Source: Gammaproteobacteria bacterium (GTDB lineage: Bacteria; Pseudomonadota; Gammaproteobacteria; GCA-001735895). From it: a stretch of DNA of 63,012 nt. Below, one piece after another: positions 25,811 to 37,064 of the stretch (the first letter of the stretch is position 1; the number at the start of each line of letters is the position of its first letter). The notes under the pieces are model-generated. The model made no database searches and was not told the DNA's origin. It was given only the letters and a program-made list of their open reading frames with translations. The translations under genes were made by a program, and so were the position numbers. The DNA lies in the NCBI GenBank assembly GCA_024232855.1, contig JAAEPH010000258.1, forward strand, positions 1 through 63,012, given 5' to 3'.

Positions 25811-26974
25811 TCACTTGTTACTTAGTCGATCCTGTCGGTTCGTCGACATCGCCAGTACCAGTTCAGCCATGTTACGCGCACCGTTACCACTGCCCAGATT
25901 TTTGCGCACGCGTTCCAGGCCTGAGTCGATACGTGCACGATATTCACGATTTTCGAGTAAATCAAATAATTCCCGGCTGACCTTTTGCGGGTTGGCGTCC
26001 GCCTGCAGAAACTCTTTTACCACGGCCTCGCGCGCGACGATATTGACCAGCCCGATATGGGGTATGGTAAGCAGGCGACTCATGATCTGGTAGGAGAGCG
26101 ATGACATCCTGTAAAGAATGCACATCGGCACCTTGAGCAGGGCAATCTCGAGCGTAACCGTGCCGGAACATGTAGCGATCGCATCACAGCAGGAAATCAC
26201 ATCGTAAATCCCGTCCCGAGTCACGCGGACATCGGCCCCGCTATCCCGCGCCTGCCGCGAAATGTCGTCAAAATCCAGGGTCGAGGCGACCGGTAGCACG
26301 AATTTCAGTTCGGTATCCTGCTCGTGCATGCGCTTCGCGCTGGCAAACATCACCGGCAGCAGGCGGGTCACTTCACTGCGGCGGCTACCGGGAAAAAGTC
26401 CCACGACCCTGGCCTGCGTCGGAATTTCGAGCCGGGCTCTAATGGTATCGGCGGAGGCGCTGGTTTTTACCTTGTTGACCAGCGGATGCCCGACAAAACT
26501 GACCGGGATGCCGGCGGCTTCGTAGTATTGCTTTTCGAAGCGAAAGATGACCGCCATGTGATCGATCAACCGGCCGATCTTGTGGATACGTTTCGGTCGC
26601 CATGCCCAGACCTGCGGGCTGATGTAAAACAGAACCGGGATACCCAGCTCGCGCGCGTGGCGCGCCATTTTGAGATTGAACTCGGGATAGTCGACCAGCA
26701 CCAGCAGGTCGGGGAGGGTGTCGTCGAGACGTTTTTTTACGATTGTCATGGCGCGCTTGATATCGCTCCAGTGGCGTAACACTTCGACCAGGCCGATGAC
26801 GGCGATAATTGACGAATCGAAAAATACATCGACCCCAGCCCTGGTCATCTCGGAGCTACCCATACCGCTGAGTTCGATATCGGGCCGTAGCTGGCGTAAC
26901 TGTTCGACAAACTCGGCCGCGTGGGCGTCACCGGAGGCTTCTCCGGCCAGAATCATGACGTGGGGCGGTTTCAT
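25811..26974 (-). CDS. lpxB: Lipid-A-disaccharide synthase LpxB
   Basis: MKPPHVMILAGEASGD...YISPQVWAWRPKRIHKI... is colinear with E. coli LpxB. The ATG at 26974 forms an ATGA overlap with the upstream gene's stop. The ORF-track start at 27052 is rejected. Confidence 0.92.
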   Translation of the reverse strand: MKPPHVMILAGEASGDAHAAEFVEQLRQLRPDIELSGMGSSEMTRAGVDVFFDSSIIAVIGLVEVLRHWSDIKRAMTIVKKRLDDTLPDLLVLVDYPEFNLKMARHARELGIPVLFYISPQVWAWRPKRIHKIGRLIDHMAVIFRFEKQYYEAAGIPVSFVGHPLVNKVKTSASADTIRARLEIPTQARVVGLFPGSRRSEVTRLLPVMFASAKRMHEQDTELKFVLPVASTLDFDDISRQARDSGADVRVTRDGIYDVISCCDAIATCSGTVTLEIALLKVPMCILYRMSSLSYQIMSRLLTIPHIGLVNIVAREAVVKEFLQADANPQKVSRELFDLLENREYRARIDSGLERVRKNLGSGNGARNMAELVLAMSTNRQDRLSNK

Positions 26975-28062
26975 CCAGCGTCCAGCATTGCCTCGCACAC
27001 GGTTTCCACCTGCTGTGCGTTCATTTCCGGGAATATCGGAAACGACAGGCATCGCTTTGCGCAGGCCTCGGTAACCGGCAAATCCGGTTGTGCGGTATCG
27101 GCAAAGGCCTTTTGCCGATGCAGCGGAACAGGGTAATAAACGGCGCAGGCGATTTCGCGCGCGAGTACCGCCTCGCGCACCGCGTCGCGCTCGTCACAGA
27201 GCAGGGTGTACTGGTGAAAAACGTGGTCACGATCAGCGGCGATGGCGGGGGTCGTGAAGCGGCTGTCGGCGAGCAGTCGGTTATACTGCTCGGCAACCCG
27301 CAGGCGCTGTCGATTGTAATCGTCGATATGCTTGAGCTTGATGCGCAGGACGACCGCCTGCAGCTCGTCCAGGCGGCTGTTGTAGCCGATGACATCGTGA
27401 TGATACTGCCGGCTGCTGCCGTGGTTGCGCAACATTTTTATCTGCGCCGCGATTTCGTCGTCGTCGGTCGTGATCATGCCGCCGTCTCCATAGCAGCCGA
27501 GGTTCTTGCTGGGGAAAAAACTGAAGGCGCCGACGCAGCCGAGGCTGCCGGTCATCTTGCCGCGATAACGACTGCCGAAGGATTGCGCGCAATCCTCGAT
27601 CAGCAGTAGCCCGAATTCGTCGGCCAGCGCCATGATCTCTTCCATGTCCGCGGGTTGCCCGAACAGGTGGACCGGTAGAATCGCCCGGGTTCGGGGCGTG
27701 ATCGCCGCGCGTATTTTTGCGGGGTCGATATTGAAACTGTGCGCTTCGATGTCGACGAACACGGGAATGGCGCCGATGTAGCGAATGGCCTCCGCGGTGG
27801 CGATGAAGGTAAATGCGCTGGTGATGATTTCGTCACCCGCCTGTATGCCGGCGGCCAGCAGGGCGAGGTGCAGAGCGTCGGTGCCGGAGGCGCAGCTGAT
27901 GGCATGATTGACGCCGAGGTATTGCGCCGCTTCCTGGTCGAAGGCCAGCACGTTGGGGCCGAGTATGTAACGAGTCTCGGCGAGCGCCTGCAAAATCGCG
28001 CTGTCAATTTCGGGTTTGAGCGTTTCGTACTGACCTTTCAGGTCGACCATGGGTATGTTCAT
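26971..28062 (-). CDS. DegT/DnrJ/EryC1-family PLP aminotransferase, GnnB-like (UDP-3-keto-GlcNAc aminotransferase candidate)
   Basis: MNIPMVDLKGQYETLK..., SGTDALHLAL, FSFFPSKNLG (PLP Lys), NSRLDELQAVVL. It is translationally coupled to lpxB and to the upstream Gfo/Idh/MocA gene. Confidence 0.8.
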   Translation of the reverse strand: MNIPMVDLKGQYETLKPEIDSAILQALAETRYILGPNVLAFDQEAAQYLGVNHAISCASGTDALHLALLAAGIQAGDEIITSAFTFIATAEAIRYIGAIPVFVDIEAHSFNIDPAKIRAAITPRTRAILPVHLFGQPADMEEIMALADEFGLLLIEDCAQSFGSRYRGKMTGSLGCVGAFSFFPSKNLGCYGDGGMITTDDDEIAAQIKMLRNHGSSRQYHHDVIGYNSRLDELQAVVLRIKLKHIDDYNRQRLRVAEQYNRLLADSRFTTPAIAADRDHVFHQYTLLCDERDAVREAVLAREIACAVYYPVPLHRQKAFADTAQPDLPVTEACAKRCLSFPIFPEMNAQQVETVCEAMLDAG

Positions 28063-29003
28063 TGTGAATCCTTTATTTGCCGGGTAATGGCGATGGCGGT
28101 CTCGAGTGCGCGCCTGCCGTCTTCACCGTTGACCAGCGGCCGCCTGTTAGCGTTGATGGCATCGATAAAATCGAGCACCTCGAGGTTGAGGGCGTCGTTG
28201 TCTTCGAAGCGGAGCTCCTCGTGGCTGATGTCTTTAAAGCCTTCCGTATTGTTGGTTTCGCCCTTGCAATTGAGCGCGAGGATCTTTTCCTGAAAATCGG
28301 CGGACAGGTAGGCATTCTTCTGGAAAATGCGCAGCTTGCGCTCGCGCTTGCGGCTGATGCGGCTGGCGGTGACGTTGGCAACGCACCGGTTTTCGAACTC
28401 GATGCGCGCGTTGGCGATATCGATAGTGTCCGATAACACCGAAATTCCGCTGGCGGAAATATGTTTGACCGGGCTGTCGATCAAATCGAGTATGATGTCG
28501 ATATCATGGATCATCAGGTCAAGGATAACGCTCACGTCGGTGGCGCGCAGGCTGAATGGCGCCAGCCGTGTTGACTCCAGAAACAACGGCTGGTGCAAGT
28601 GCTTCTCGATACCGATCATGACGCTGTTGAAACGCTCGATATGTCCGACCTGCAGCACCAGCCCCTTGTCGCGCGCGATTTCGATCAGGCTGGTGGCCTC
28701 GGCCACGGTTTCAGTCATCGGTTTTTCGATCAGACAGTGAATTCCCGCTTCCAGAAATTCGCGTGCGATTTTATAATGCAGGCTGGTCGGCACCACGATA
28801 CTGATTGCATCCACCAGGGGGATGATGTCGCGGTAATCGGAATAGGCATCGGCGCCGTGTTTGTGTGCGATTTCGCGGGCATTTTCGATATTCGTATCGA
28901 CCACGGCCACCAGCTGGCAAGCCGCGCAGGCCGCATATTTGTCAGCGTGCCATTTGCCGAGATGACCGACACCAACAACAGCAACCTTGAGTATTTGAGA
29001 CAT
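28059..29003 (-). CDS. Gfo/Idh/MocA-family NAD oxidoreductase, GnnA-like (UDP-GlcNAc 3-dehydrogenase candidate)
   Basis: Rossmann N-terminus MSQILKVAVVGVGHLGKWH and the EKPM motif. I chose the ATG at 29003. The ORF-track extension to 29222 would overlap rnhB and is low-complexity. Confidence 0.78.
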   Translation of the reverse strand: MSQILKVAVVGVGHLGKWHADKYAACAACQLVAVVDTNIENAREIAHKHGADAYSDYRDIIPLVDAISIVVPTSLHYKIAREFLEAGIHCLIEKPMTETVAEATSLIEIARDKGLVLQVGHIERFNSVMIGIEKHLHQPLFLESTRLAPFSLRATDVSVILDLMIHDIDIILDLIDSPVKHISASGISVLSDTIDIANARIEFENRCVANVTASRISRKRERKLRIFQKNAYLSADFQEKILALNCKGETNNTEGFKDISHEELRFEDNDALNLEVLDFIDAINANRRPLVNGEDGRRALETAIAITRQIKDSQ

Positions 29004-29037
29004 AGTGGCAGGGGTAAATTGAAACGGCGCATTATAT

Positions 29038-29622
29038 ATGGATGAAAACCCAATTGCTAAGCTTGTTGCCGGAGTCGACGAAGCGGGGCGGGGGCCGCTG
29101 GCGGGTTCGGTGGTTGCCGCCGCGGTGATACTGGATGCGGCCAGGCCGATCGACGGGTTAACCGATTCCAAGAAACTGTCGGCCGCAAGGCGAGCGACGC
29201 TCGAACAGGAAATCAAGCTCAAGGCCAGGGCCTGGTCGGTCGCTGAATCCAGTCAGGGTGAGGTCGATGAGATCAATGTCCTGCAGGCCAGCCTGCTGGC
29301 GATGAAACGCGCCCTGCTGGCACTGGATGTCAAACCCGAACAGGTGCTCGTCGATGGCAATCGCCTGCCCTCCGTCGCCGGTTACCACATGCTTGCCATC
29401 GTCGGTGGTGACCTCTCCGAGCCCTGCATATCAGCCGCTTCGATACTCGCCAAGGAGTTCCGCGACCGCCAGATGCTGGAACTCGACCGCCTCTACCCGC
29501 AGTACTGCTTTGCACAACACAAAGGCTACCCAACCGCCCTTCATCGCGAGCTACTGAAAAAACACGGCGTCTCCCCGGTGCACCGTAAAAGTTTCCGGCC
29601 CGTCAGGGAGTTGCTGCCGTGA
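29038..29622 (+). CDS. rnhB: Ribonuclease HII
   Basis: [23 protein letters not shown]...DSKKLS... It sits in the conserved position before dnaE. Confidence 0.94.
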
Positions 29623-32600: not shown

Positions 32601-33107
32601 GAACAGGACACCCGGGTCTGCGGGCTGGTTGTCGATATTCGCATGCGCAACGGTTTCAGGGGTCGCGAGGCATTCGTCACCCTCGATGACCGCAGCGGCC
32701 GCGTCGATGTGCGCGTGTCCCCGGACATGCTGGCGCAAATTGAAGCCATCATACAAAAGGACCTGATTTGGGTGGTTGATGGCGGAATCGCCTACGACGA
32801 TTTCAACAATGGCATCAAGCTGCGCGCCAGCAGAGTGCAGTTATTGGATGACTACCGCGTCGGCAATGCCCGCGCCCTGCACATTCGCCTGCACGCGCCG
32901 GCCGAGCAGCAGCTCGACGATGTCATCGAGGTGCTCGAGAGTTACCGCGGTAGCGACGCGATGCCGGTCGTGTTTCACCTGCGCCGTGAAGACTACGACT
33001 ACCAGTTGCGCACCAATGGCGGCTGGTCGTTAAAACCGGACGAACAGTGCCTGCTGTCGCTGCAACGCTGCCTCAAACAGGCTGAATTCTACTTCGAGTA
33101 CCAGTAA
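29619..33107 (+). CDS. dnaE: DNA polymerase III alpha subunit
   Basis: 1162 aa. PHP domain [12 protein letters not shown] and [21 protein letters not shown]. The GTG start forms a GTGA overlap with the rnhB stop. Confidence 0.97.
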
Positions 33108-33123
33108 CGATCCGCCTGGCCGC

Positions 33124-35982
33124 TCACGCGCGAATACGGCGGTAGTACAGATAAGCGAGCAACCCGGCCAAAAGCAACCACCAGGGTGGCTCCGAGGTTT
33201 GTTGTTCGCCTTCGAACTCCAGCCCGCTGTGGTTTTTCAACGACTGCGCTTCCTTGCGCTGTAGCATCTCCCATTGCGATGCTGCCTCGACGGCAATCAA
33301 TGACGTCGTGGGGATTAACATGCCTTTGCCGCGGCTCATGCCCAGCAAAGCTTGTCGCGCGGATTCGAGATGTGCCGGATTCAAACTCAGATTGCGCCAT
33401 TCGATCCAGATTGCAACCAGTTCCGGCCAAACGGGATTTATTGCGTCACCCGCTTGCGGAACTGCCTGCGTAAAAACAAACCGGTTGGTTTCAGGATCGA
33501 AAATCTGCATCGGTCTGGAACCCGGCGCCTCCACGATCGAATTTTGTCGAGCGGCAAGAATCCTGAGCTTGCTGTTTATTTTCAACGCCACGACATTTTT
33601 CGTGAATCCTTCTTCGAGCCCTGTTTCGGATGATATAGGCACCGCCCGTAATCCATCCCGATCGAAGCGATACCAGCGCTGCATATCGGGAATGAGCCTG
33701 TGCCATTGATCCAGCGCCACCACCTGGTCGACGGCCTTTTTTCTGCCTTCGAGCACGGCGAACACGGGGCGCTGCTGGAAAGATTGGTCACTGATCGATT
33801 CGTGATAGCGCATCATTTCCGATGCCAGGGCCTGCTCCAACCATAGCCCGCCAGCCTCGGGTAGTTGAATACTGTCGATGTAACGCATTATTGTGTCCCG
33901 GTCGCCGGCGTCCAGAAACTCACCTGCAAACGGTTTCGACAGGGTTATATTCGCCGCGGTGACCTTGAGTCTGGAAATGCCCAGCTGTTCGCTCGCTGCA
34001 ACAATTCTTGCAACGTAGTCCGCCGTATCGAGTCTGGACTCCTTCGAATAGTCGAGGATCACATGCAGATAAGTGCTTCTTTGCAGCGCATGCGCTTCGA
34101 GCAGGCCGGCATCAAGTAAAACCCCCCGGGCGGATGCGATCGAAGGTCCGGGGATATCCGGGTTCAGGTCAATGGATTGCTGACGAAGGCTGATATTCGC
34201 ATTCATCTGCGGGTGAAAGTCGAAATCCAGCTCAACTTCGCGTAACCCGCTTGCCGGGAAGGGATAAAGTCGCAGTTCCGCCAATCCGGAGGTTTTATAG
34301 TACAACAGCGCAGGATCCCGCCTGACTTCGGTGATTTTTTGAAAGACCCATTGCGCGGTTTTACGATCGAATATCCGTCCGCTGACCCATTCGTCGCCAA
34401 TCTTCAGCCGGAGCCCGGTGACAAAAACGCCCTCAGGTAATGCCAGATCGCCGACAAACAGGCTGTGTACATCGCTCGTCTGGTTCAACAGGTTCAACCT
34501 CAAGGTGACTTGCCCCGGTGCCAAATTTCGCAGCGCGGTCGATTGCACAATAACGTCCCGATTCGGTGCAACCGGTTGCGGACGGAAAAAACGTCGACGA
34601 TTGTTGTCGAAATTACCGAAAACGGATAGCTGTCGCCGGGGTGGTGCTTGGTTGGTCAGCAATCGGTAAAGGCGCGCAATTTTTGCATCGGTCAAGACCA
34701 GGTCGCCAAAAACTACGCTGTTATAAAAAGCGGACAGATAGGGAAGCTGTAGACCGGCTTTTCGATCGTGCAGTTCGATCAGCGCCTTTGCCGACCGGCT
34801 CATCTGCCGGACCGTCAGGCCTTCTTCCTGCAGGTCATGCGAATAAAAATAGTCCAGGCTGGTATCCAGCGCGCGTTTATCCAGCAACGCCTCCAGGTAA
34901 AAGCCCATGGGCAAAACGAGCAAGCCGGCAAAGCAACAGCCCAGCGCTTTTTTGCGACCCAGCTTGTCGCTGGCCAGGTGAAAGTCCTGCAAAGTCACCT
35001 GGCTCTGGAACAGGCCCAGCGCCAGCGGCGTCAACATCAGAAAACCCATACCGACGACCATGATCGCCAGCAGCGACAAGGGCAGAAACGGCAGAAACAC
35101 GATAAAAAAGTAAGCGATGAACGGGAAGGTGAGGCACCTTAAAAACAATCGCGTCGCGATAAAATTCGGTACCCCGGGTTTCAGCATCAATACCGCCCCG
35201 TTGAGCAATGTAAACAGATAAACCGCCGGGTCCTGGAAATCGACCGGAAACGAAATTGTGTGGTTGAGCGACAGGCCTGCTATCGGTGCCGCAACGCCAA
35301 GCAACGCGGCAAATATGTTATGTCTCTGTATCAGTCCCAGGACCGAATTCTTATGCGCTAGGTGATCGAACAGGCGAATAATCGATCCCAGGAACGCAAC
35401 GACTATCAGCGTCGCGATGACGATACTGATCACCACTGTGAACTGCCCCAGCCAAAAGGGTTGCAGGAGCACCACAAACAGATACCAGATCACCGGCGCG
35501 CCAAGCACGGTGCTCACCAGTATCGGCGTGCGCAGCGAGTCTTGTACACGGGAGAAAAAATAGTTCGTCAAGGCGTAGAGCGACAAAAAAGCGCCTGGCA
35601 TCAACAGGGTTATCGTCCATCGTCCGACATTTCCTTCGTTCAAAATCCAGGGTTGAATCGAATCCGGAATGACGCCTAGCCCGTAAGCCAAGAACAGCCA
35701 CATGGCGATAACATGCACGAGTAGCGAAAACAGCATCAATTTCCAGCCAACCTGGAAACATCTTTGGTGAGACAACCAGATCAACAGGGCAAATACAGCA
35801 AGCATGACAAGCGCCACGACAAGAACCAGCGATGCAGTCACGGCTTGCTCGCGGTTGGCTTCAGCGCCGATTAATGCCCATGCGCGGGTATTCAGGATCA
35901 GTAACAGGGATTGCGGAATCAGAAACCCGAAAATCAGGGCCAGCGAAACCGGCTTCAGCGTTATTCGATCAGGTGTTTGCAT
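33124..35982 (-). CDS. Large polytopic membrane protein with VIT-like ectodomain and C-terminal SEP-CTERM (MSEP-CTERM-like) exosortase sorting signal
   Basis: There are about 10 or more hydrophobic helices in the first ~420 aa. A central beta-rich block (ALPEGVFVTGLRLKIGDEWVSGRIFDRKTAQWVFQKI...ELRLYPFPASGLREVELDF) resembles a VIT domain. The extreme C-terminus is TSEPPWWLLLAGLLAYLYYRRIRA, i.e. a PEP-like motif, a TM helix and a basic cluster. The start is 35982 (ATG) or 36024. Confidence 0.8.
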   Translation of the reverse strand: MQTPDRITLKPVSLALIFGFLIPQSLLLILNTRAWALIGAEANREQAVTASLVLVVALVMLAVFALLIWLSHQRCFQVGWKLMLFSLLVHVIAMWLFLAYGLGVIPDSIQPWILNEGNVGRWTITLLMPGAFLSLYALTNYFFSRVQDSLRTPILVSTVLGAPVIWYLFVVLLQPFWLGQFTVVISIVIATLIVVAFLGSIIRLFDHLAHKNSVLGLIQRHNIFAALLGVAAPIAGLSLNHTISFPVDFQDPAVYLFTLLNGAVLMLKPGVPNFIATRLFLRCLTFPFIAYFFIVFLPFLPLSLLAIMVVGMGFLMLTPLALGLFQSQVTLQDFHLASDKLGRKKALGCCFAGLLVLPMGFYLEALLDKRALDTSLDYFYSHDLQEEGLTVRQMSRSAKALIELHDRKAGLQLPYLSAFYNSVVFGDLVLTDAKIARLYRLLTNQAPPRRQLSVFGNFDNNRRRFFRPQPVAPNRDVIVQSTALRNLAPGQVTLRLNLLNQTSDVHSLFVGDLALPEGVFVTGLRLKIGDEWVSGRIFDRKTAQWVFQKITEVRRDPALLYYKTSGLAELRLYPFPASGLREVELDFDFHPQMNANISLRQQSIDLNPDIPGPSIASARGVLLDAGLLEAHALQRSTYLHVILDYSKESRLDTADYVARIVAASEQLGISRLKVTAANITLSKPFAGEFLDAGDRDTIMRYIDSIQLPEAGGLWLEQALASEMMRYHESISDQSFQQRPVFAVLEGRKKAVDQVVALDQWHRLIPDMQRWYRFDRDGLRAVPISSETGLEEGFTKNVVALKINSKLRILAARQNSIVEAPGSRPMQIFDPETNRFVFTQAVPQAGDAINPVWPELVAIWIEWRNLSLNPAHLESARQALLGMSRGKGMLIPTTSLIAVEAASQWEMLQRKEAQSLKNHSGLEFEGEQQTSEPPWWLLLAGLLAYLYYRRIRA

Positions 35983-36514
35983 CGGCCCGACCTGGTCCCT
36001 GTTTTTCAATTGCCCAGGCAACAATCAGAAAACAGCACAGAAAAGCAATCGAGCCGGTCACTACGTGCAGCTCGACAGCGAGATGATCGGCGTCGAAAAA
36101 TGTCAGAAACTGATGGGCATGAATCGCGGACAACACGCGCATGCTGTTGGCAAACAGCGCGACCGGATATGCCAGCGACAGCCATATTAGCAATTTCTTG
36201 CGGGTGTGCAGCCGATAGACCAGATAAGCGACCAGTAAACTGAAAAATGTCGTGCCACTGCAGGTTTCACCGAGGAGGAAGCGGGTTGCACCTGGTCGAA
36301 ACAACCACTGCTGACCGTCGTAAAATCCGAATCCAATGTACTGCTCCAGCACCAGTCCGGTCGGATAGATAAACGCGGATTTCAAAAACACCAGCTGTTG
36401 AAACAGCAACCGGCAGGCAAAAAAGACCAACAGCAGCAAAATGAATGGCCGGGCGACGGAAATCCGGCTGGAAACGCCTTTCCAATTCAGAAATTGGGTA
36501 ATCGCGGCTCTCAT
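35969..36514 (-). CDS. Minimal exosortase-family intramembrane transpeptidase (XrtK/XrtN-like)
   Basis: 181 aa and highly hydrophobic. It carries the exosortase catalytic signature in the right order: Cys (GETCSG), Arg (ANSMRV), His (LHVVTG). Its 3' end overlaps the start of the SEP-CTERM protein gene. Confidence 0.75.
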   Translation of the reverse strand: MRAAITQFLNWKGVSSRISVARPFILLLLVFFACRLLFQQLVFLKSAFIYPTGLVLEQYIGFGFYDGQQWLFRPGATRFLLGETCSGTTFFSLLVAYLVYRLHTRKKLLIWLSLAYPVALFANSMRVLSAIHAHQFLTFFDADHLAVELHVVTGSIAFLCCFLIVAWAIEKQGPGRADANT

Positions 36515-36696
36515 GCCACCAATGCCGCGTTGACCGGGCCTGCACTACCCGAACCGGCACCAACAGCATGGAGGGCGGCATTGGGTAATCTTGCTACAGT
36601 TTCCAGCCCCATCAATTCTTCCGCCTGACCTGTCAAAACCAGTCAAAATCTACACGATCGCACTGATGAAGTAAATCACCGTTTTACGTAGCGATA

Positions 36697-36712
36697 TGCA
36701 CATGGATGTGCA
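36697..36712. promoter_or_regulatory. 7-2-7 perfect palindrome TGCACATGGATGTGCA upstream of the exosortase operon
   Basis: Read directly. It lies 183-198 nt upstream of the exosortase start on the minus strand, in the only non-coding stretch available for a promoter. Confidence 0.35.
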
Positions 36713-36749
36713 GTAGTAGAGCAACGCAGGAGCAATTGCCGAGAAAATC

Positions 36750-36770
36750 GGTGAGCGATGCAGGCTAGTC
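36750..36770 (-). repeat. Copy C of the stop-codon-abutting motif (TGACTAGCCTGCATCGCTCACC on the minus strand)
   Basis: The 21-mer differs at one position from 60869-60889. It begins at the TGA stop of the SDR gene remnant. Confidence 0.75.
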
Positions 36771-37064
36771 AGGTCGGTGCGAATATCTCGCCGTTGTCGT
36801 CGCAGTCGTCGCTCATCAGGTAGAGGAAAGCGTCGACATGTTCTTGTGGCTCCGGCAGTTGCTCACTGTCATCCGCCGCGGGATAGGCGCGAATTTGCAG
36901 GGGCGTGCGCGTCTTGCCGTGATTGAGGCAATTCGTGCGTAGCTGGCTGCCGGCGTACTCGCGTGCGAGTAAGCCCGCCATCGCCGTGAGTCCCCGCTTA
37001 CCAGGATAACCTGGTCCTCGAGCATGACCTCGACGGCGTGAAATGATGCCGGTATCGCTGTCAT
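36769..37064 (-). pseudogene. YciK-type short-chain dehydrogenase gene remnant (internal deletion plus frameshift)
   Basis: The N-terminal piece (...LEDQVILVSGDS...) starts with an ATGA overlap on the gph stop. The C-terminal piece is in another frame (AGLLAREYAGSQLRTNCLNHGKTRT...DAFLYLMSDD) and matches YciK ..LADEYQQRLRVNCINPGGTRT...LYLWLMGDD. About 150 aa of the Rossmann core are missing. Confidence 0.7.

Follow-up and report, generated by a model that had tools for sequence, protein, structure and literature searches.

A gene pair of the MSEP-CTERM/XrtK kind, probably a dedicated one-substrate exosortase system, in a variable island of a gammaproteobacterial contig

Exosortases and archaeosortases are Cys/Arg/His endopeptidases, and dedicated sorting systems are recognised by the adjacency of the genes for enzyme and target (preprint 10.1101/2023.06.07.544157). 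One such kind, in which a protein of the MSEP-CTERM family is paired with exosortase K (XrtK), is already catalogued in TIGRFAMs/NCBIfam, and the gene pair that we describe here is an additional member of it. The pair lies in a 63-kb stretch of gammaproteobacterial DNA (63,012 nucleotides, contig JAAEPH010000258.1), the whole of which we call the window; both of its genes are on the minus strand, as are all other window features whose coordinates are given below. It forms the content of a window-specific accessory island of ~3.6 kb (33122..36764), and we consider it probable that this island encodes an exosortase system of the MSEP-CTERM/XrtK kind in which one enzyme is dedicated to one substrate, working by the mechanism proposed below and acquired horizontally. 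To the catalogued picture the window adds an enzyme that falls below the curated XrtK threshold outside the Bacteroidota, a motif whose core is EP rather than MSEP, an ectodomain folded like the inter-alpha-inhibitor heavy chains (ITIH), which leads to a concrete and testable idea of an exosortase role, and an island that marks a strain-variable dnaE-yciK site in an uncultured, marine-type gammaproteobacterial lineage.

The larger gene (33124..35982, ATG start) encodes 952 amino acids plus a stop codon; an alternative TTG start at 36024 extends the open reading frame (ORF) to 966 amino acids (33124..36024), and some of the searches reported here are numbered accordingly. Its product is clearly a member of the MSEP-CTERM family. 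Namely, it matches TIGR04286 (MSEP-CTERM sorting domain-containing protein in NCBIfam) with 356 bits (E 4e-106) against a curated cut-off of 150, and the alignment runs end to end, from residue 24 to residue 963 of the 966-residue ORF (10-949 in the 952-residue numbering) against positions 5-914 of the 920 in the model. An earlier, sequence-only reading of this DNA had guessed at MSEP-CTERM with XrtK, and for the large protein that guess is right. The length of the protein lies inside the family range of ~920-990 residues, its N-terminal region is hydrophobic and multi-helical, and it departs in none of the 18 columns that do not vary in an 88-sequence alignment, the window's protein included. 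In a search of 5.8 billion proteins we found 97 relatives, the closest of which, besides the window's own, has an identity of 53%. Gammaproteobacterial metagenome-assembled genomes (MAGs) and isolates, among them Arenicella xantha, Thalassotalea sp. PS06, Exilibacterium and Aestuariibacter, make up a clade at 36-53%, and NCBI already names the gammaproteobacterial relatives MSEP-CTERM proteins. Members from the Planctomycetota-Verrucomicrobiota-Chlamydiota (PVC) phyla and the Omnitrophota are ~25-31% identical to it, and those from the Bacteroidota 21-25%.

How does the locus compare with the described systems? With the MSEP-CTERM/XrtK pairs of the Bacteroidota (TIGR04286, TIGR04287) it shares a target that is above the family cut-off along its whole length, the order of a polytopic N-terminal domain, a VIT-type domain and a tail of EP motif, helix and basic cluster, and a small enzyme (~165-180 residues) encoded immediately upstream. 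It differs from them in its motif, which is TSEP (in its clade [TA][SP]EP) instead of MSEP, in the score of its enzyme on the XrtK model, which at 26.9 bits is below the cut-off of 55, in the low identity of its target, given above, and in its gammaproteobacterial host. The sequence-only reading had considered a large polytopic membrane protein an odd substrate for a sortase-like system; this we cannot uphold, since the polytopic architecture defines the MSEP-CTERM family and is thus its norm. The XrtN system and its VIT protein (TIGR04476, TIGR04477) is likewise a one-target exosortase system. What is more, while TIGR04286 is matched by 28/28 members of a representative MSEP-CTERM alignment, TIGR04477 is matched by 27/28 of the same members (best E 1.9e-21), from which it follows that the two target families are homologous, and XrtN is a sister system of MSEP-CTERM/XrtK. 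The similarity of the window's protein to TIGR04477 sits in the membrane domain (residues 187-346 of the 966-residue ORF, ~173-332 of 952) and reaches 13.5 bits where the cut-off is 250; the XrtN enzyme, on the other hand, is much longer (model length 406) and is not among the matches of the window's enzyme. Finally, the canonical PEP-CTERM/XrtA system has in common with the window the enzyme superfamily, the catalytic residues and the logic of a tripartite signal, and two PVC members of the MSEP-CTERM family even match generic PEP-CTERM models in their tails. It serves many targets, however, whereas the window's system has one and no exopolysaccharide locus nearby; its enzymes carry N-terminal helices that the window's lacks, and the window's target has a large membrane domain in place of a signal peptide.

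The smaller gene (35969..36514) is an xrtK-type minimal exosortase gene of 181 codons, and its product is a member of the exosortase/archaeosortase superfamily. It scores 36.2 on the exosortase/archaeosortase signature TIGR04178 (cut-off 23, E 5e-9) and 30.5 on PF09721 (gathering score 25.7), the latter over model positions 100-249 of 254, and it covers positions 81-236 of the 241 in TIGR02602 (8TM_EpsH), the N-terminal helices of which are absent. We call it minimal because nothing but the C-terminal part of these long models is covered by its alignments. The catalytic residues that had been picked out from the letters in the order Cys, Arg and His are indeed read in this ORF as Cys85 in GETCSG (codon 36260-36262), Arg126 in ANSMRV (36137-36139) and His150 in LHVVTG (36065-36067). 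Cys85, Asn123 and Arg126 do not vary among 71 partner proteins, of which the window's is one (71/71), and His150 and Gly154 are found in 70, the remaining one being gapped; all invariant columns of this alignment are kept in the window's enzyme. In an AlphaFold2 model with a mean predicted local distance difference test (pLDDT) of 79.9 the enzyme has five helices (15-40, 42-60, 86-104, 109-139 and 143-171), and Cys85 caps the third of these, Arg126 lies in the fourth and His150 lies early in the fifth. Since the loop at 100-107 is strongly basic, Cys85 and His150 would point towards the periplasmic face, where the substrate motif would sit.

The two genes are tightly joined. The stop of the exosortase gene overlaps the ATG of the target gene by 14 nucleotides (35969..35982); with the TTG start the overlap would be 56, so that the range of 14-56 given from the letters simply reflects the two possible starts, at 35982 and 36024. 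The ATG is favoured, as it agrees with the N-termini and lengths (mostly 950-965 residues) of the homologues. Both ORFs are intact and of full length, and the arrangement suggests that they are co-transcribed and translationally coupled. A non-coding leader (36515..36764), in which a scan identified no promoter, precedes the exosortase gene within the island.

The same pairing is found well beyond the window. A scan with one genome per species gave at least 264 proteins related to the large one, among Gammaproteobacteria, the PVC phyla, Omnitrophota, Bacteroidota and Leptospirales, and 80 loci were kept; in these, partners were sought with a profile of homologues of the small protein, iterated once. 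In 70 of the 80, spread over at least six phyla, a partner is encoded upstream on the same strand, mostly immediately upstream, and it was missed in ten, four of which have less than 340 nucleotides of upstream DNA. In other words, the two genes do co-occur, as they should if the sequence-only reading of a single-substrate sorting system were right, and the 63-kb window itself holds just one exosortase homologue and one tail of EP motif, helix and basic cluster. The pairing, the single exosortase homologue and the single tail are what Haft (10.1101/2023.06.07.544157) names as criteria of a dedicated one-to-one system. Besides the partner, no flanking gene is common to the window and the related loci, and no third gene near the pair is conserved across clades; there are clade-specific neighbours only, none of them in the window. 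One is a small winged-helix regulator 5' of the pair in 11 loci from Verrucomicrobiota and Bacteroidota (L024, L035, L049, L056, L067, L069, L071, L072, L077, L079 and L080), absent from the window. Another, just 5' of the pair in 9-13 loci, combines a GntR-type regulator with an ABC ATPase and a ~470-residue polytopic membrane protein (in Omnitrophota and Planctomycetota: L013, L014, L016, L017, L019, L026, L031, L032 and L042), which may represent a clade-specific extended operon. An apparent in-frame fusion of enzyme and target in L015 (1493-3340) was rejected, since it is produced by a stretch of N that masks part of that record.

The extreme C-terminus of the large protein carries the presumed sorting signal (33127..33198), for which the sequence-only reading had described a PEP-like motif, a transmembrane helix and a basic cluster, and which we read as T929-S930-E931-P932, then PWWLLLAGLLAYLYY, which forms a helix (934-947), and then the cluster RRIRA. 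In the AlphaFold2 model of the protein the motif coincides with a disordered stretch (residues 927-932) directly before the terminal helix (934-951). The tail is kept in the homologues, E931 being present in 82 and P932 in 87 of 88 aligned sequences, while the residues that precede EP vary by clade: MSEP is found in 28 of 30 Bacteroidota sequences, [SV]PEP in the PVC sequences and [TA][SP]EP overall in the gammaproteobacterial clade (TSEP 19, TPEP 16, ASEP 10). The window's motif is TSEP and not MSEP, with EP, helix and basic cluster all present and conserved. The signal is preceded by a conserved helical block (residues 852-925, model helices 852-916; 33208..33429), as seen in the alignments and in the model. 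The last ~35 residues of this block, 891-925 (33208-33312), have the pattern TS(Y/F)IVVE..SQW..L.RKE.Q.L...(L)(D/E)FEE, exceed most of the ectodomain in conservation and include E899 and Q903, both invariant in 88 sequences; they may be a docking surface for the enzyme.

The remainder of the large protein is described from the AlphaFold2 model (pLDDT 88.5, predicted template-modelling score 0.87). From the model and from hydropathy, residues 1-379 (34846..35982) form a polytopic membrane domain with ~11 helices (9-379), for which there is neither a Pfam match nor a significant fold match in the PDB. A helical linker (residues 391-466) leads to a VIT-type beta sandwich (477-623; 34114..34554), read from its modelled strands, from a sub-threshold Pfam VIT match and from Foldseek, and this is followed by a vWA-like alpha/beta domain (636-830; 33493..34077), identified by secondary structure and by a fold match to ITIH1, with an incomplete MIDAS (the adhesion site that depends on a metal ion). 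The Pfam VIT model (PF08487) gives 25.5 for residues 506-600 of the 966-residue ORF, slightly less than its gathering score of 26.5, and many homologues carry a precomputed PF08487 match; Pfam vWA gives no match, only the fold is vWA-like, and a search of the PDB by sequence returned marginal VIT matches only. In a Foldseek search of the PDB the ectodomain matches the whole of mature ITIH1 (6fpy; E 7.4e-9, probability 1.0) over 593 columns at 9% identity and a TM-score of 0.23-0.33, and this match supports reading the ectodomain as VIT plus vWA-like. The architecture of some ten or more transmembrane helices, a VIT-like block and possibly a degenerate vWA-like region that had been suggested from the letters agrees with the model.

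With ITIH1 (6FPY) the target shares an ectodomain fold in which VIT is followed by vWA and a further domain and, if it is cleaved, it would share a maturation by loss of a C-terminal segment, which is documented for ITIH (PMC7170535). The MIDAS of ITIH1 consists of D298, S300, S302 and D403 (PMC7170535); in the family of the window's protein, by contrast, D644 is kept in 86/88 and S646 in 85/88 sequences, but the third serine is unconserved, with G, D or A in its place, so that the pattern of a functional site (DxSxS with distal Thr and Asp) is not found. Besides this and the 9% identity, ITIH differs in being secreted and in lacking a membrane domain, and it is an established fact of ITIH that its C-terminus is transferred covalently, while such a transfer is hypothetical for the window's target.

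Composition and comparison with close relatives argue that the module has been inserted. In blastn comparisons with three close relatives (L082, L085 and L087), whose backbone DNA is 86-89% identical, homology ends at 33101-33121 and restarts at 36764-36782, which sets the boundaries of the island at ~33122 and 36764. The GC content of the island, 53.6%, is lower than that of the flanks (57-59%), and that of third codon positions is 0.60-0.64 against 0.73-0.76 in the flanking genes; a search of the flanks found no repeats, att-like sites or mobility genes. The backbone is collinear with the window in the closest long contigs, those of close uncultured relatives (gyrA, amidohydrolase, ubiG, HAD, short-chain dehydrogenase/reductase (SDR) ... 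dnaE, rnhB, GFO-type oxidoreductase, DegT), and for the HAD phosphatase next to it, homologous proteins are 75-97% identical; every one that bears a name is labelled 'MAG: Gammaproteobacteria bacterium'. The site itself is variable. In L087 (10401-11210) it is empty, with ~0.8 kb between an intact 246-residue SDR gene and dnaE and a single ORF of 45 residues; in L082 (11412-14698) and L083 it holds genes for a 686-residue protein and a small outer-membrane beta-barrel, and in L085 (10404-15471) genes for proteins of 541 and 695 residues and an outer-membrane beta-barrel. The proteins of 541, 686 and 695 residues match nothing in Pfam or NCBIfam. On the far side of the island lies the remnant of a yciK-family SDR gene (36765..37064) with an internal deletion of ~430 bp and a frame shift: its first ~25 and last ~70 codons survive in different frames, the stretch equivalent to L082 10741-11170 is missing (blastn), and a frame of 74 residues matches the YciK family (NF006509) with E 3e-14 over model positions 175-236 of 248. 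In the relatives the gene is intact (233-247 residues). The earlier proposal that the pair had been inserted between dnaE and an SDR gene in decay is supported by this, and the decay is real. Taken together, the boundaries, the empty site in L087, the varying cargo and the distinct composition support the horizontal acquisition of the module at a variable dnaE-yciK site.

The mechanism that we propose is as follows. The 952-residue protein would be an inner-membrane protein, its N-terminus cytoplasmic, anchored by ~11 helices, and would expose the ITIH-like ectodomain (VIT plus vWA-like) to the periplasm, while a twelfth, C-terminal helix would lead back to the cytoplasm and end in RRIRA; such a topology, with both termini inside and the ectodomain outside, fits the charges of the loops. 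The 181-residue exosortase would be an intramembrane cysteine protease of four or five helices with Cys85 and His150 near the periplasmic face. We infer that it cuts the product of the adjacent gene at the EP motif or beside it: it would recognise TSEP abutting the last helix and cut there by way of an acyl-enzyme intermediate, removing the helix and the basic tail from the target. The acyl intermediate might then be hydrolysed or handed to an acceptor in the envelope. In either case the mature target would still be held by its N-terminal domain, with the ectodomain freed at one end.

Several results weigh against this picture. In 6 of the 76 loci with enough upstream DNA no partner is found within 1.6-6 kb, and these absences appear to be real. 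The promoter and terminator scan of the island found sites no more often than in shuffled sequence. The PDB holds no relative of the enzyme by sequence and, by fold, nothing significant (best E 0.19), and a literature search for exosortase structures found nothing useful. Although the system is widespread, our literature search found no experimental paper on it, that is, no experiment on any MSEP-CTERM/XrtK pair. Lastly, the enzyme fails to reach the curated cut-off of TIGR04287, and here the XrtK label of the sequence-only reading has to be qualified: XrtK is the best subfamily match of the small protein, at a score that falls short of the threshold. This shortfall is not peculiar to the window, as the partners tested from the Gammaproteobacteria, the Planctomycetota, the Omnitrophota, the Verrucomicrobiota and the Leptospirales score 35-44 and all six of the non-Bacteroidota partners tested are below the cut-off with XrtK still their best subfamily, whereas Bacteroidota partners score 170-175. 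It follows that the curated model is tuned to the Bacteroidota, and the naming of public homologues of the small protein as 'hypothetical protein', while their targets are named, fits with a sub-threshold score elsewhere. In addition, with a profile of gammaproteobacterial partners the XrtK proteins of the Bacteroidota are recovered with E-values of 1e-8 to 1e-11; after one iteration, L065 and L076, which are above the XrtK cut-off, and several other Bacteroidota partners are found at E <=1e-47 (155-165 bits), and some others at a lower 96-140 bits (E 1e-28 to 1e-42). Size (181 residues, for a range of ~165-180) and pairing with an MSEP-CTERM gene are of the XrtK type as well. As for the superfamily assignment, for which exosortase models had been suggested as the check, the small protein stands above the cut-offs of TIGR04178 and PF09721.

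Would cleavage be all that the enzyme does? XrtK might instead be a transpeptidase that transfers the new C-terminus of the ectodomain to a lipid head group, to peptidoglycan or to exopolysaccharide, in parallel with sortases and with ITIH heavy chains, whose C-termini become esterified to chondroitin sulfate once a pro-domain has been removed. We hold this to be possible but doubtful. It draws on the fold match of the ectodomain, which covers the mature ITIH1 chain in full, and ITIH heavy chains are made with a pro-domain at the C-terminus and become joined to a glycan by an ester bond at their C-termini (PMC7170535); exosortases and sortases, moreover, have a Cys/Arg/His triad in common, and one-step transpeptidation is suspected for the former (10.1101/2023.06.07.544157). 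The XrtN system, another exosortase subfamily, has a homologous VIT-type target. The family TIGR03788, which we take to be a VIT/vWA target with a sortase of its own, is matched by the window's protein only once and weakly (E 0.0096, residues 528-566 of the 966-residue ORF). It is the ITIH parallel that makes transfer to an envelope acceptor attractive. That said, no acceptor, glycan or lipid-modifying gene is conserved beside the pair, the MIDAS is incomplete, unlike that of ITIH1, and the fold match is globally loose, as the TM-score shows. The more specific proposition, by analogy, that an XrtK-type transpeptidase couples the C-terminus of an ITIH-like ectodomain to an envelope glycan or lipid and is thereby a prokaryotic counterpart of the ITIH ester linkage, we regard as rather improbable; if true, it would explain why sorting enzymes that are unrelated, namely sortase, XrtN and XrtK, each have a private VIT-type target.

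It could also be argued that the small protein cuts nothing and serves as a subunit, or in the assembly, of the large one, the C-terminal helix of which would then be a permanent, uncleaved second anchor. Gene pairing alone is indeed no proof of cleavage, and in XrtK the stretch that corresponds to the initial ~80-100 positions of the canonical exosortase models is absent. However, the residues of the presumed active site are invariant, or nearly so in the case of His150, in proteins that are otherwise less than 30% identical, a pattern that fits catalysis and not scaffolding, and the conserved EP motif stands exactly at the helix boundary; we therefore think such a role very improbable. Slighter still, in our estimation, is the chance that the island is decaying or non-functional cargo in this genome, in the manner of the adjoining yciK gene, which is broken, and for which one could also cite the negative promoter scan. 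Against it, both ORFs are of full length, the target keeps its 18 family-invariant columns and the enzyme all of its own, and the tight 14-nucleotide overlap is preserved. A dedicated exosortase system that cleaves its one substrate thus seems to us the most probable account of the pair.

A minor observation concerns the backbone beside rnhB and dnaE. At 26971-29222 a DegT-type aminotransferase gene adjoins a gene for a GFO/IDH/MocA oxidoreductase, the best match of which is UDP-GlcNAc 3-dehydrogenase; the pair resembles GnnA/GnnB, for lipid A of the GlcN3N type, and stands beside lpxB in relatives. The TTG start listed in this pair (387 residues) is probably too far upstream, since the relatives call a product of 314 residues.

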